From Planctomycetota bacterium (lineage in GTDB: Bacteria > Planctomycetota > UBA11346): a stretch of 64,000 nucleotides of DNA. The stretch's first letter is position 1; each line of letters starts with the position of its first letter. The notes beneath the pieces were generated by a model. It was given only the letters and a program-made list of their open reading frames with translations, did no database searches and was not told the origin of the DNA. The stretch lies in NCBI GenBank assembly GCA_038213805.1, contig JBBQSO010000011.1, positions 4,205-68,204 on the forward strand. Reading direction: 5' to 3'. The translations under genes were made by a program, and so were the position numbers. This document shows, piece after piece, positions 720 through 62,769 of this stretch.

Positions 720-826
720 GCCATCAGCCATCAGCCATCAGCCATCAGCTATCAGCTATCAGCTATCAGCCATCAGCCATCAGCCATCAGCCATCAGCCA
801 TCAGCCATCAGCTATCAGCTATCAGC
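720..826. repeat. Tandem heptamer array (GCYATCA)x15
   Basis: Counted directly: GCCATCA x4, GCTATCA x3, GCCATCA x6, GCTATCA x2, then GC; the last unit overlaps the stop codon of the 822..3017 gene. Confidence 0.97.
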
Positions 827-3017
827 GCCCATCGACGTTCTGTTCCAACTGCCGCGTCAACTCTGCGGGAGTCGTCACCGCGGTTAGGCAGCGCCTGCCA
901 ATGCACAGATAGGCCGTCGCCTGCCCGCCGCTGCGCGGCATCGGCACGATCGCGGGAAAGCGCTGGCGCAGGGCAGCGAGTTCGGGCCCGTCGTCGAGGA
1001 TCAGGATGCGCAGCCGCGGACGCAGTCCCGCGGCTGCGGCGGCGAGCAGCGCGCGCGTGGCGGGCTGCGCGGGATCGCCCATGATGGTCAGGTGCGCAGC
1101 GTCGCCAAGCGCCTCATCGAGTGCGCCGAGCAGCGCGGGATGGCCCTCGGGATCCGCCGCACCGCGTCGGCGCGCTCCCGCCAGCAAGCGCGTGACGCGT
1201 GCCTGCCAGATGTCGTCCTCAGTGAGCGCGGTCAGCACTAGCAGGTTGCGCGTGGCGACCGCGTCCGCGGACGGCTCCGCGCCATCGCCATCATCGTGCA
1301 GGCGTGCAACCAGCCCGGTGACGCGTGCGTCCGCGCTGGCGTAGCCGCCGGCGGCCTCGTCCCAGAATTGGCGGTCGAGCACGTCCTGAAGTTCGACGGC
1401 CCAGGCCAGCCAGCGCAGGCCCGCGCCGGCCTGGTGCAGGGCGAGCAGTCCGCGGATCAGGCAGGCGTAGTCGCTGGCGGTGCCGGCCGCGGTCTGGCGG
1501 TTGAAGCCGGTGCGCGCCAGGAACACGCCCGACTGCCAGTGGCTGGCGCGCAGCGCCTCGGCCGCAGCCACCGCCGCGGCGAGCGCACGCGGTTCGCCCA
1601 GCATCATCCCTGCGCGCGCCAGGGCAGCGATCATCAACCCGTTCCACGCCGCCACGGCCTGATCGTCACGCGCCGGGCGCGGGCGGGACTGGCGCGCCGC
1701 AAGCAGGCGGGCGCGGGCTGTCGCGAAGGCCGCCGCATCGGCCTCTGGCACCGGTGCGGTGAGCGCCAGGACGTTCAATCCGGCGAGTTCATGCTGGCGG
1801 TCGAGGGCGGGCGAGACGTTCCCGGCCGGCGCGATGCCGTAGGCAGCAAAGATCAGCGGCGTCAGGCGCTCGCCATCACCGCCCGCGCCGAGCACCTTTG
1901 CTACCGCGGCCGCGCTCCAGGTGTAGAACGCGCCTTCGCCGTGCTCACCGGGGCGGTCGGGGCGCTCGCTGTCGGCGTCCTCGGCAGCTGCGAAGCTGCC
2001 GTCCGCGCGGCGCAGGTTGCCCAGCACGTAATCGACGATGTCGAGCGCCACGGCGCGCCACGCTGGATCGCCGCTCAGCGCCCAGGCGTCGAGGTAGCTG
2101 TCGAGCAGCTGCGCCTGGTCGTAGAGCATCTTCTCGAAATGCGGCACGCGCCAGGCGGCGTCGACGGCGTAGCGGTGGAAGCCGCCGCCGAGCTGGTCGT
2201 GGATGCCGCCCGCCGCCAACGCGGCCCAGGTGGTCCGGCACATGCCGAGCAGCCGCTCGCGCTCTGCAGGCAGGCGCGCGGCCAGGCGCACCAGCAGGTC
2301 GAGACTGGCGGGACGCGGGAATTTTGGCGCGCCACCGAAACCGCCGTGCACGGTGTCGAAGCGTGCGGTGAAGGCCGCGGCCGCGGCCGAGAACAACGCG
2401 CCGTCGCCGTCCGCGGAGGGGTCCTGCGTCTGGCCGCCGCGCGCGCCGTAATCCACCAGGGTCTTCACCACGTCCTCGGCCTGCGCGGTGAGCTCGCCGC
2501 GGCGCTCTTTCCAGGCTGCGGCGAAGCGCGTCAGGTTGTCCTTCAGTAGTGCCGGCGGGAAGTAGGTGCCGCCGACCAGTGGACGGCGTTCCGGGGTCAG
2601 CCACACGGTCAGCGGCCAGCCACCGCTGCCAGTCGCGGCCTGGACGAAGGTCTGGTAGAGCTGGTCGACGTCCGGGCGTTCCTCGCGATCGACCTTGATG
2701 CACACGTACCGCTCGTTGAGAAGCGCTGCGATCGCGGGATCGCTGAAGCTCTCGCGCGCCATGACGTGGCACCAGTGGCAGGTCGCATAGCCGATCGAGA
2801 GCAGCACCGGCTTGCCTGCTGCCGCGGCCTCGGCGAAGGCTGCGTCGCCCCATGGGCGCCAGTGCACCGGATTTTCCGCGTGGCTGCGCAGGTAGGGGCT
2901 GGGCGCGTCCGCGAGCAGGTTGGCGGCCGGCAGCGCGCCCGGGGCGGCATCCGCGGCGGGCAACGCCGGCCAGCAGCCGGCGCAGGCGGCGAGCAGGGCG
3001 GCGAGATGCGTGCTCAC
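822..3017 (-). CDS. Thioredoxin domain-containing protein, DUF255/YyaL (SPATA20-like) family
   Basis: [75 protein letters not shown] start at 3017 overlaps the upstream stop (GTGA); N-terminus is signal-peptide-like. Confidence 0.9.
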
Positions 3018-3973
3018 CGCACGGCTGCGGCACGGCGACCGTATACCGTGTCCGGCCAGCGTTTGGCGATCTGCGGCAAAGCGGCCTTGCCTGCCGCCTG
3101 GTCGGCAGGCTTGAGCGAAGCGAGCAGCGTCTGACAGGAGTGGAACGCGGTGCGCGCAGCGAGCTCGGGTTTGATGGCCTTGTCCTTGCCCAGCTCCTTG
3201 AGCCGTTCCTGCGCATCCTTGAGCTCGAGGCCCTGCCCTTCCCCGAGGAGGTTCTCGAGCGCTTCGTAGGTAACGAACGTGCCAGGTGCGGCGACCAGCT
3301 CCGCGGCGCGCGTCGTGAAGCTGTCGCTGACGGTGGCAAGCACGCCCTGCAACTGGTCCTGGACCGGCGATTTGGTCTTGGCGGCGCTGACCAGGCTGCG
3401 GACCGCATCCGGTCGCTGGCGCTCGACCTGCCACCACACCTCTTTCACGCGCTCATCGCTGAGCCCGGGGGCGGGATAGCGGAACGCACCCGCCTCCTTG
3501 CTGGTGAAAAAAGTCTCGAAGGTCGCGGCTGGCGTGTTCCAGGCCAACTCCGCACGTTCGCGATGATCGCCGCCGTAGGCGCCGACCTGGTAGACGTTCT
3601 GCAAGCTGATGCGCTGGCCGTTGACCGGATCGCTGGCCCACAGCGCGTGGTCCATGTGGTAGCTGCGCTCGCGGTTGAGGGCGAGGGCCTCGGCAGGTCC
3701 GAGATCCGGAGTGGCGAGGACCAGGGTCATCGGCACCTTGCGGGTCTCGATGAAGTCGTAGAGCCCCTTGATCTGCTTGCCGAGATAGGCCGCGGCAGTC
3801 GGGCAGTGCCCGCAGAAGTACACCACGGTCACGCCCTGGTCGGGGAAGTCGGCGAAGGAGCGCGTCTTGCCGTCGCTGAAGCGCAGATCGGCGAGCGGAT
3901 CGGCGGCGTCCAGGTGGGCGGTGGCGACCAGCAGAGATGCAGCCATGAGGGTGGCGAAGGCGGCGTTGCGCAT
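3014..3973 (-). CDS. Secreted redoxin/thioredoxin-fold protein (CGHC motif) with helical C-terminus
   Basis: Signal peptide [33 protein letters not shown]...VVYFCGHCP redoxin-like segment. Confidence 0.7.
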
Positions 3974-4172
3974 GGCTGGGGCTCCGGGACGTGGCTGGCC
4001 AGCCTAGGCCGCGAATCCTCGCGCGCCACCGCCAGCCGACGACCCGCCGCAGCCTGGGGGCGCACCACCGCCCCGCGGCGTCCGAAGCGGTGGGCGCTTG
4101 TCCGCGGCCGCGCCGGCCCATGGTGCGCAGCATGTCCGGCCCGCCCGCACGTCGCGAACGCGCAACCAGCCC

Positions 4173-61511: not shown

Positions 61512-61665
61512 TGGCTTGGGCGTCATCCTGCTTTTGCGCGCAGCCCCGGATCGGGCAGTGGACCGATAGAAGCGCGGGTGGCGCTCTGGACAGGTCGCCT
61601 CATCGGCTCCGCTACTCCGCGGCATGAGCGCGATGTCCAGCCCAGGGTCTGGCATCTCCGCAAGA

Positions 61666-62673
61666 CTAGCCCTTGCCGACCTCGAACCCGCGTTCGACCA
61701 GATCCTGCAGATCGAGCAGCCCGACCAGCTTCCCGTCGTCATCGACTACTGGCAGCTCGTTGATCTTGCGTTCGGCGCAGATGTGCAGCGCCGCCTGCAG
61801 CAGGTCGCCCGCGCGCACCATCCGGCAGGGCATGGTGGCGTGTGCGTCGACGCGCGCGGCCAGCACCGCGGCGGGATCACCGGCGCGGGTCAGCACACGG
61901 CGCAGGTCGCCATCGGTGAAGATGCCCAGCAGCCTGTTCTGCTCGTCCACCAGCACCACGCTGCCGGCGCGCGCGCGGGTGATGGCGCGCAGGCAGTCGA
62001 GCACGCTGGTCGCGGGCGCCACCGCCGGCACGCGCTCGCCCGCGCGCATCGCTTCGCGCGTGGTCATCAGCTTGCGGCCGAGCGCGCCGCCGGGATGGAA
62101 GCGCGCGTACTGCTCGGCGGTGAAGCGGCGCTGACCCTGCACGGTCAGCGCCAGCGCGTCGCCGAGTGCAAGCATGGCGGTGGTGCTGGTGCTCGGCGCC
62201 AGCCCGAGCGGACACGCCTCGAGCACCGCGCCGATGCAGAGGGTGACCGCGGCGTGGCGCCCGAGGGGGGAGGCGCGATTGCCGACGATGGCGACCACGC
62301 AGACACCAATCAGGCTGAGGCTGGGCAGCAGCGCGACCAGCTCCTCGCTCGAACCGCTGTTGCTGAGCGCCAGCACCACGTCGGTCTCCTGGACCATGCC
62401 CAGGTCCCCGTGGCGGGCCTCGGCGGGGTGCAGGAACAGTGCCGGCGTGCCAGTGCTGGCGAAGGTCGCCGCGAGTTTACGCCCGATCAGCCCGGCCTTG
62501 CCCACACCGGTCACCACCAGGCGCCCCGGACGCCCGTCGCCGCAGCGCGTGCGGATCAGCGCGCACGCCTCCTCCAGCGCCTCGCCCTGCTCGCTGCAGG
62601 TCTCGGCCAACCGGCCGACCGCGGCTGCCTCCGTAGCAAGGATGTGGCGGATGCTGGAGACGGCGTCGCTCAT
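61666..62673 (-). CDS. kdsD: Arabinose-5-phosphate isomerase, KpsF/GutQ family (SIS + CBS)
   Basis: TGVGKAGLIGRKLAATFASTGTP, HGDLG, LAPSTST, FHPGGALG, GIFTDGDLRR. Confidence 0.93.
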   Translation of the reverse strand: MSDAVSSIRHILATEAAAVGRLAETCSEQGEALEEACALIRTRCGDGRPGRLVVTGVGKAGLIGRKLAATFASTGTPALFLHPAEARHGDLGMVQETDVVLALSNSGSSEELVALLPSLSLIGVCVVAIVGNRASPLGRHAAVTLCIGAVLEACPLGLAPSTSTTAMLALGDALALTVQGQRRFTAEQYARFHPGGALGRKLMTTREAMRAGERVPAVAPATSVLDCLRAITRARAGSVVLVDEQNRLLGIFTDGDLRRVLTRAGDPAAVLAARVDAHATMPCRMVRAGDLLQAALHICAERKINELPVVDDDGKLVGLLDLQDLVERGFEVGKG

Positions 62674-62748
62674 GCGCGGAGTCTCACCCGCCTGGGGCGC
62701 GCTACAATCCTCGTGGTCGATTCACGCTTTCGGGGCAGGAGCGAGGTG

Positions 62749-62769
62749 GTCTAGCGTCTAGCGTCTAGC
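62749..62769. repeat. Tandem heptamer (GTCTAGC)x3
   Basis: Three exact copies in the kdsD / 62800 intergenic region. Confidence 0.85.

Follow-up and report, generated by a model that had tools for sequence, protein, structure and literature searches.

The DNA analysed here (the window) is a stretch of 64 kb from contig JBBQSO010000011.1 of a Planctomycetota bacterium, in which several intergenic regions contain short tandem arrays, most of them with a unit of seven nucleotides. At three of these regions, two arrays form inverted arms on both sides of a core. The paired arrays of the window belong to a discrete, ordered class of elements that is distributed over the whole genome, and the arms are common to copies without a gene and to copies carrying one. 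With a probability of roughly 0.55, we favour the reading that these elements are hairpin cassettes similar to intervening sequences (IVSs), a poorly described class of mobile DNA.

The source genome (G000) is a metagenome assembly from soil, with 5.5 Mb in 180 contigs, 69% G+C and a completeness of 90%. Two close relatives, G010 and G003, both metagenome-assembled genomes (MAGs), were used for the comparison of sites; their coding flanks are 91-98% (G010) and 85-95% (G003) identical to those of G000. Arrays were searched with Tandem Repeats Finder (TRF) in the window and in the whole genome, and the genome counts include arrays with a score of at least 50 and at least 4 copies. In the following, C numbers denote contigs, L numbers denote loci, and positions without a prefix refer to the window.

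Paired Elements of the Window

Three elements, A, B and C, were identified in the window.

6396..6417, plus strand: left arm of element A, (GTGCGGA) x2.4, outer units decayed
6418..6515, no strand: core of element A, 98 nt, single-copy in the genome
6516..6546, plus strand: right arm of element A, (CACTCCG) x4.4
8165..8215, plus strand: left arm of element B, decayed, purine-rich
8216..8440, no strand: core of element B, about 225 nt, between divergent genes
8441..8505, plus strand: right arm of element B, decayed, pyrimidine-rich
14913..14946, plus strand: left arm of element C, (GCTGATA) x4.9, perfect
14947..15055, no strand: core of element C, 109 nt, with an internal hairpin
15056..15109, plus strand: right arm of element C, (AGCCATC) x7.6

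The original prediction had named four loci with paired arms. Three of these (6396-6546, 8165-8503 and 14913-15109) were identified as such, whereas at the fourth, 26172-26316, no inverted arm was detected at a seed of 6, and this locus is not counted as an element. In element A, the units of the two arms, GTGCGGA and CACTCCG, are exact reverse complements, and the element (6396-6546) is wholly missing from the orthologous site of G003. The locus at 8165-8503 had been described as a heavily decayed element, which agrees with the remnants of complementary arms and with the clean arrays of its G010 ortholog. In G000 the clean arrays are gone, and nested segments at 8178-8209 and 8441-8488 retain 81-100% complementarity; the arrays in G010 are of the GCGAGGG type, and the homology of the core to that of G000 was judged by eye alone. 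The arms of element C differ by one base per unit, each arm being uniform for its own variant. At the site of element C, arms of the (GAGCTGT) type are present in G003 and (GGCTGAC/GCTGGCA) arms in G010.

The assembly of the window was confirmed by one contig obtained from four DNA runs, which covers 6179-11405 with zero differences. Metagenome contigs of a related strain cease to match the window at 6371, 14840 and 15133.

Abundance, Pairing, and Unit Families in the Genome

In the whole genome, 306 arrays with a period of 7 and 170 with a period of 8 were identified, in addition to 14, 12 and 11 arrays with periods of 6, 9 and 12, respectively. In a control genome shuffled in blocks of 300 nt, 0 arrays were found at every period from 3 to 12, which places the period-7 and period-8 arrays above chance. 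After merging of overlaps, 226 arrays of the octamer GACTTCCG, 197 of GCCATCA, 63 of ACTCCGC and 57 of ACCCTAG were counted. At genome scale, four unit families account for 544 arrays, and the earlier statement that the unit differs at each locus was not borne out.

The arrays of these main families are strictly ordered. Among neighbours at most 250 nt apart, 150 same-family pairs were found in left-right order and 0 in right-left order, in agreement with the expectation that pairing and orientation exceed chance; the other neighbours are 3 mixed-family left-right pairs, 1 right-right pair and 1 left-left pair. The fixed left..right orders are GTCCGGAA..GACTTCCG, GGCTGAT..ATCAGCC, GCGGAGT..ACTCCGC and CCCTAGA..TCTAGGG. 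Clean pairs comprise 306 of the 544 arrays. For the remaining 238, a decayed partner was found within 260 nt in 110 cases; 25 have their partner side past the end of a contig, 14 stand opposite an array of a different unit, and for 89 no partner was detected. The number of cassettes, which are intergenic, was estimated as about 150-200 in the genome; 78 of 787 arrays sit deep within predicted open reading frames (ORFs). The argument that independent slippage cannot explain the arrays is upheld by their fixed orientation, by the presence of few units at hundreds of loci, and by a modal arm of 4.4-4.5 units.

A shared NCNGANN skeleton had been proposed for the left arms. Of 18 left-arm heptamer families, 5 agree with it (78 of 111 loci), and its strand bias is real, since the reverse complement fits none of the 18. 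The skeleton fails for the CCCTAGA family (18 loci), and the largest family has an octamer unit. NCNGANN is a strand-biased resemblance among the related units GCTGATG, GCTGACG, GCTGATA and GCGGAGT, not a rule.

An exact 27-mer of the octamer array is also present in genomes labelled Chitinophagaceae, Niabella, Paraflavitalea, Mucilaginibacter, Streptomyces, Nonomuraea and Kitasatospora.

Arms, Folding, and Position

The arms have a length of about 4.4 units. Octamer arms peak at 4.4-4.5 units (115 of 227), and GCCATCA arms extend up to 21 units. In the octamer family, the phase of the inner boundary is fixed and imperfection grows outward; in the heptamer families, inner phase and length are variable. 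Of 142 octamer arm ends, the classes listed as ending ...CGGAAGTC total 63.

RNA folding of 147 elements resulted in a median of 28 arm-arm pairs, that is, a stem of about 28 bp. The median minimum free energy was -92.5 kcal/mol versus -58.5 kcal/mol for shuffled sequences (median z -8.7, with 99% of the elements at z < -3). The cores folded alone behaved like shuffles (median z -0.24), with 13.6% of them at z < -2. The mirroring of unit variants between the two arms, which was considered as evidence for hairpin-templated repair, was weak: in the octamer family, the mismatch was 0.087 within elements versus 0.110 between elements (permutation p ~0.004), and no effect of mirroring was found in three heptamer families.

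All elements examined adjoin protein-coding genes, and none is located in helix 25 or 45 of the 23S rRNA. Where the 3' end of a gene faces an element, the median distance from stop codon to arm is 9 nt. The four classes of neighbour orientation contain 51, 34, 32 and 26 elements versus 1074, 1036, 673 and 668 gene pairs in the background, the 26 being located between divergent genes; no preference for one class was seen, the proportions being roughly those of the background.

Properties of the Cores

The cores have a length of 46-140 nt, with a median of 86 and an interquartile range of 74-117. Several origins were considered for them and rejected. Decay from arrays is not apparent, the periodicity at lag 7 and lag 8 being barely above background and the composition being that of other spacers (about 65% G+C). 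Copies or patchworks of the genome were rejected on the grounds that the cores are single-copy and that the 14- and 16-mers they have in common with other parts of the genome are fewer than those of control spacers. An ancestral spacer that gained arms does not fit the empty sites in G010 and G003, which are without the core, nor the unrelated cores found with a differing arm family wherever this could be judged.

In the octamer family, TCGT was identified next to the arm at 25 of 142 ends, and a GGACAGCC/GGCTGTCC motif is present at the opposite end in some cores. A CGGCGC(N)GCGCCG hairpin near one arm was found in 6 of 39 cores of the GCCATCA family; 0 of the 99 cores from the other families have it, compared to 4 among 586 control spacers. 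No tie between the polarity of the core, as set by the end motifs, and transcription was seen, the distribution being random (10 versus 9).

A minor family with GAGGAACG arms resembles a classical miniature inverted-repeat transposable element (MITE), with a conserved core and extra outer inverted repeats. It was located at L002:1490-1610, in the G010 ortholog of window 6371-6667, and at C20:64089-64186 of G000. Three further copies of its core are present in G000 at 81-83% identity, and one is present in G010 at a different site.

Comparison with Related Genomes

The sites of 19 elements of G000 were compared with the relatives, of which 12 were assessable in G010 and 15 in G003. The seven other comparisons with G010 remained without outcome, either because contigs stop at repeats or because no match was found.

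G010, 12 assessable sites: same arm family and homologous core 6 (1 inverted), different element 5, empty 1, borderline 0
G003, 15 assessable sites: same arm family and homologous core 1, different element 8, empty 4, borderline 2

One of the six sites of the first class in G010 (8165-8503) was scored by eye only, automatic flank matching having given no result there. The empty sites, 1 of 12 in G010 and 4 of 15 in G003, represent the presence/absence polymorphism at orthologous loci that the original prediction had called for. A shared arm family was accompanied by homologous cores (z 13-24 in 4 cases and 2.4-3.6 in 2 short cases), while a different arm family was accompanied by unrelated cores, with z ~0 in 4 of 4 scored cases of G010. 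Because the same arm family goes with a homologous core and a different family with an unrelated one, arms and core change together; gain, loss and replacement at an intergenic site affect them as a single unit. The inverted core of G010 has 69% identity in the reversed and 53% in the forward orientation, with a maximum of 58% among shuffles and a local-alignment z of only 2.4.

Third codon positions differ by 13.5% between G000 and G010. In alignments of array-free spacers, 9% of the positions differ, a figure that is biased to alignable DNA. Two aligned orthologous cores (n=2) are 27% and 31% different, 2-3 times the value of other non-coding DNA.

The units themselves also differ between the genomes. 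The counts of (GGCTGAT)3 to (GGCTGAC)3 are 802:21 in G000 (38:1), 81:87 in G010 and 13:30 in G003 (1:2.3), and in seven other genomes of the genus they are 0 except for one match in G002. Both variants coexist within single arrays of G010. The length and the unit of the arms change rapidly: arms gain or lose whole units, and a unit variant can sweep one arm. Old copies decay.

At L160, the G003 ortholog of C22:55664 of G000, the GGCTGAT element is replaced by a spacer of 615 bp with a hairpin, the arms of which have a 9-nt unit (AATCTCCCC).

Genes Enclosed by the Arms

Five matches to TIGR02436 were identified in the genome, of which three lie between inverted arrays, a fourth has heptamer arrays on one side, and the fifth has weak arrays. 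At C29:26284-26776, octamer arms enclose an ORF of 146 amino acids that matches TIGR02436 and reaches 84 bits to PF05635 ("23S rRNA-intervening sequence protein"). This cassette is located downstream of a 462-amino-acid ORF coding, as judged from its translation, for a putative IMP dehydrogenase; its left arm stands 2 nt after the upstream stop codon, and 12 nt separate its right arm from the next ATG. At C19:5907-6407, GGCTGAT arms enclose a second match. The third, on C115, is enclosed by inverted arms of (GCTTCTC) x10.6 and (CGAGAAG/CGAGTGG). In addition, the only PF13366 (PDDEXK_3) gene of the genome sits between the octamer arms GGAGGCGC/TCTCCGCG; PF13366 is presumably the family named GxxExxY by NCBI. 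The link between such arms and small genes, which had been noted for other genomes, is thus present in this genome, with two TIGR02436 genes in main-family arms, a third in GCTTCTC arms, and the sole PDDEXK_3 gene. The cargo genes in the arms are not transposases. PF05635 has been described as homologous to Avd, a protein of diversity-generating retroelements, in the part of PMC10053308 that treats this family.

Just 5' of the start codon, three of the five four-helix-bundle genes share a conserved leader, GC-rich and about 200 nt in length, in which long stretches are self-complementary (L146:230-420; L147:555-720, minus strand; L148:620-790, minus strand). The two four-helix-bundle genes in main-family arms are without this leader. 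At L146:800-990 (C115 of G000), 3' of the four-helix-bundle cassette, two mini-hairpins with (CGAGTCG)-type arms and loops of 12-17 nt were identified; the loops hold the GGCTGTCC motif, which also ends some cores of the octamer family.

Between more distant arrays, ordinary genes are found with an element on each side, coding for a HAD hydrolase, an EpmA-like protein and a SEC-C motif protein. At several places in G000 (C15:12815-14237, C114:12083-13148, C135:865-2713 and others), one gene or a short group of genes stands between separate elements of the same family.

Solitary Arrays and Other Features of the Window

720..826, plus strand: orphan right-type array, (GCCATCA/GCTATCA) x15.3, expanded, the two variants in blocks
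26172..26213, plus strand: doubtful member, weak period-7 tract with 70% matches, between kinase-like and regulator-like genes
28608..28642, plus strand: solo right-type octamer array, (GACTTCCG) x4.4
62749..62770, plus strand: short solo array, (GTCTAGC) x3.1, minor unit

The orphan tracts at 720-826 and 62749-62770, already noted before, were both found by TRF. A search for an inverted left-arm partner of the 720-826 array detected none, and this array is missing in G003. The octamer array at 28608-28642, which had been overlooked, begins 6 nt past the end (28602) of the minus-strand ORF 28602..29006.

At 668-1334 and 14675-15341, metagenome contigs stack on the GCCATCA arrays, with a summed depth of up to about 1500 compared to about 10-20 elsewhere. 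Some of the stacked contigs link a GCCATCA-type run to a GCTGAT-type run via short AT-rich spacers, so that other organisms in these samples, of low G+C, may have the unit too.

An insertion of about 0.8 kb at 16034-16852 contains an ORF for 202 amino acids at 16102-16710 that matches PF01797 (IS200-like Y1 transposase), similar to REP-associated tyrosine transposases (RAYTs), REP denoting repetitive extragenic palindromic sequences. It has GC-rich inverted repeats of about 30 nt on both sides, which bear no relation to the heptamer arrays, and the corresponding site of G003 has only 82 bp.

Interpretation of the Cassettes

A cassette consists of two inverted arms of about 4.4 units (unit of 7 or 8 nt), which pair into a stem of about 28 bp, with a locus-specific non-coding core or a small gene between them. 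The gene form encodes a four-helix-bundle "IVS protein" (TIGR02436/PF05635, Avd-related) or, in one case, a protein of the PDDEXK_3 nuclease fold. In the reading favoured here, the cassettes would represent selfish or mobile DNA with a design related to that of the IVSs of 23S rRNA. The long perfect RNA stem is proposed to permit removal of the insert from the transcript by RNase III, and such removal would make the insert tolerable even within an operon or only a few bases past a stop codon. Recombination between the arms would invert the core. Spread may be driven by gene-carrying copies or by some host enzyme, and recognisable cores would have been lost through fast mutation of the loop or through non-replicative movement.

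Several observations weigh against this reading. The processing of the cassettes by RNase III is suggested by analogy only. In the genome, no transposase or recombinase was found tied to the arms, and the PF01797 genes are not flanked by arrays. By blastn, no second or donor copy was found in the genome for 144 of 147 short cores. When 145 cores were aligned locally, all against all and in either orientation, a weak excess resulted, with 22 pairs scoring at least 30 versus 6 for shuffled cores and a maximum of 41 versus 37, compared to 51-74 for orthologous cores. Three cores, including those of elements A and C and of one element gained after the split from G010, were compared to 47 other genomes of the family, among which short marginal matches alone and no homolog were found. 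Of the six G010 sites that are without the G000 element, five are reoccupied by unrelated elements, far above the approximately 5% expected for 150-200 elements among 3451 adjacent gene pairs; such recurrent occupancy needs hot spots or a saturation of permissive sites. Target-site duplication is weak: the one readable junction (C8:55231 compared to G010) has a possible 5-bp direct repeat and 11 extra bases. All three genomes are incomplete MAGs (G000 90%, G010 68% and G003 62%), and the gene positions are those of a crude ORF caller based on G+C at third codon positions (3631 ORFs, stop to stop).

For the origin of the cores and the reuse of sites, three routes are considered: non-replicative movement with fast divergence of the loop, recombinational import from a diverse population, or de novo installation. 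The last of these would make the cassettes a self-renewing kind of element and would involve a machinery, possibly using the pentameric IVS/Avd-like protein or the GxxExxY nuclease present in some copies, that installs new hairpins at recurrent intergenic sites, with standard repeat arms and a loop that is new or hypermutated rather than copied as in a transposon. The orphan cores, the occupied sites with replaced content and the genome-wide shift of the unit would be explained by such an installation, which we consider unlikely, if the least so of the alternatives to IVS-like mobile cassettes.

Addition of the arms by an enzyme is a more doubtful explanation. Here, a polymerase or recombination system, perhaps with a pentameric four-helix-bundle protein, would attach the arms at the two ends of a piece of DNA, or else rewrite them genome-wide from a template; a fixed number of units would be laid outward from both ends of short unique DNA, which would then be at, or become integrated into, an intergenic site. 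This would account for cores without a donor, and it is consistent with the identical repeat strand 3' of the core on each strand in 150 of 150 pairs, with the fixed inner phase and outward-increasing imperfection of the octamer arms, with the modal arm of 4.4-4.5 units, which is unlike the geometric spread produced by slippage, and with the different dominant unit of close relatives (GGCTGAT versus GGCTGAC). Yet at least 6 unit families would each need a template, the heptamer arms vary in inner phase and in length up to 21 units, and the left and right arms at 14913-15109 have fixed different variants, as fits slippage within an arm. The cores are also not patchworks of genome fragments, in view of their fewer shared 14-/16-mers than in control spacers. 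No PF00078 reverse transcriptase, the sole family searched, was found in the 90%-complete assembly, and enzymatic repeat addition, as suggested in the original prediction, is not supported.

A comparably low probability is assigned to non-mobile features of the host, formed in place by slippage and kept as terminators, as hairpins for RNA processing or stability, as protein-binding sites or as non-B DNA; the Xanthomonas repeats have been interpreted along these lines. Such features would fit the elements that abut gene ends, the sweep of unit variants within an arm, and the terminator-like hairpins of some cores (13.6% at z < -2; CGGCGC(N)GCGCCG in 6 of 39 GCCATCA-family cores), and they would fit sites that are occupied in relatives far above chance even when the content differs. 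However, a locus-by-locus origin cannot produce one identical unit at about 200 loci, nor identical arms around cargo that looks selfish, and clean empty sites are present in the relatives. Elements also stand in all classes of gene orientation at near-background proportions, with 26 between divergent genes, and the polarity of the core is random to transcription (10 versus 9). From reading of the unit sequences, the units appear unable to form G-quadruplexes.

Ordinary non-autonomous transposons of the MITE type, or of the type of REP doublets forming hairpins (REPINs), moved by a transposase encoded elsewhere such as a RAYT-like Y1 transposase, are very improbable: terminal inverted repeats, small size, intergenic location, many copies, the genome's 4 above-cut-off matches to PF01797, a candidate 5-bp direct repeat at one empty site and the minor GAGGAACG-arm family with its conserved cores and outer inverted repeats would fit them, but conserved internal sequence is missing in 144 of 147 elements, the arms are tandem arrays of variable length instead of a fixed terminal repeat, the RAYT-like gene of the window has different, GC-rich palindromic flanks, and the RAYT involvement that had been considered found no support, 0 of 5 PF01797 matches being flanked by main-family arrays and the nearest arrays being more than 1.2 kb off and part of other elements.

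The approximately 150 gene-less copies, the several unit families and the two close relatives make gain, loss, replacement, inversion and loop divergence accessible to measurement. The elements break assemblies, as is evident from the 25 solo arrays with their partner side past a contig end, and they make intergenic regions non-comparable between strains. If they are cut by RNase III, they would also shape operon transcripts.

Comparison to Known Systems

REP sequences, REPINs and bacterial interspersed mosaic elements are short intergenic hairpin repeats that form inverted pairs and are present in many copies; a conserved spacer is retained in REPINs, which flank the RAYT gene to which they are tied. 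In contrast, the spacers described here are unique, and the RAYT-like genes are without flanking arrays. The foldback transposons of eukaryotes have long terminal inverted repeats built of short tandem repeats and a variable middle segment. They are much larger than the cassettes, and there is no evidence of a common machinery.

Intergenic heptamer repeats have been noted for decades without explanation, as the short tandemly repeated repetitive (STRR) sequences of cyanobacteria and as the repeats of Xanthomonas and Beggiatoa. For the TAACTGA repeat of Beggiatoa, the part of PMC4679880 dealing with it lists 169 direct sets and 1 inverted set, mostly upstream of start codons. The cyanobacterial and Beggiatoa repeats are similar to the arrays described here in being abundant, dispersed and intergenic heptamers with few units per genome. 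They differ in that paired inverted arms are the rule here, that the largest family is an octamer, and that the host belongs to the Planctomycetota.

The nearest description found in print is that of the convergent pairs of Xanthomonas. Intergenic GGGAATC arrays, mostly of four units, form 70-75 convergent pairs per genome, and the array length varies among related species, according to the sections of Rehm et al. 2015 on these repeats (PMC4692102). In the same sections, the repeats were read as G-quadruplex formers, and a link to mobile elements was not found (PMC4692102). Intergenic location, a length of about four heptamer units and convergent orientation are common to both systems. The Xanthomonas units are G-tracts, whereas GACTTCCG, GCCATCA, ACTCCGC and CCCTAGA, judged by their letters, have no GGG run on the repeated strand, TCTAGGG excepted. 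In addition, one of the units described here is an octamer, and cargo genes, replacement of whole elements and inversion of a core have been documented.

The IVSs of 23S rRNA in Coxiella, Leptospira and Salmonella have, like the cassettes, an inverted-repeat stem of about 28 bp and a loop that may carry a four-helix-bundle gene, as far as described in the IVS-related text of PMC4990558. For Coxiella, the same text reports a 28-bp terminal stem cut within by RNase III, an S23p ORF, and tandem heptamers varying in number between strains. These IVSs are regarded as selfish and as tolerated through the cutting of their stem by RNase III (in the passages of PMC4990558 on this point), which for the cassettes would hold by analogy. 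While the IVSs are located in helix 25 or 45 of the rRNA, the cassettes are found between protein-coding genes, are mostly gene-less, and occur in hundreds of copies and several unit families. In the open-access and bioRxiv literature, no link between paired heptamer arrays and the IVS/four-helix-bundle family was found. The design is partly in print, while its scope, the link to cargo, the dynamics and the mechanism are undescribed. The cassettes tie the excess of heptamers, the IVSs and the stand-alone Avd-like four-helix-bundle genes to one possible design.

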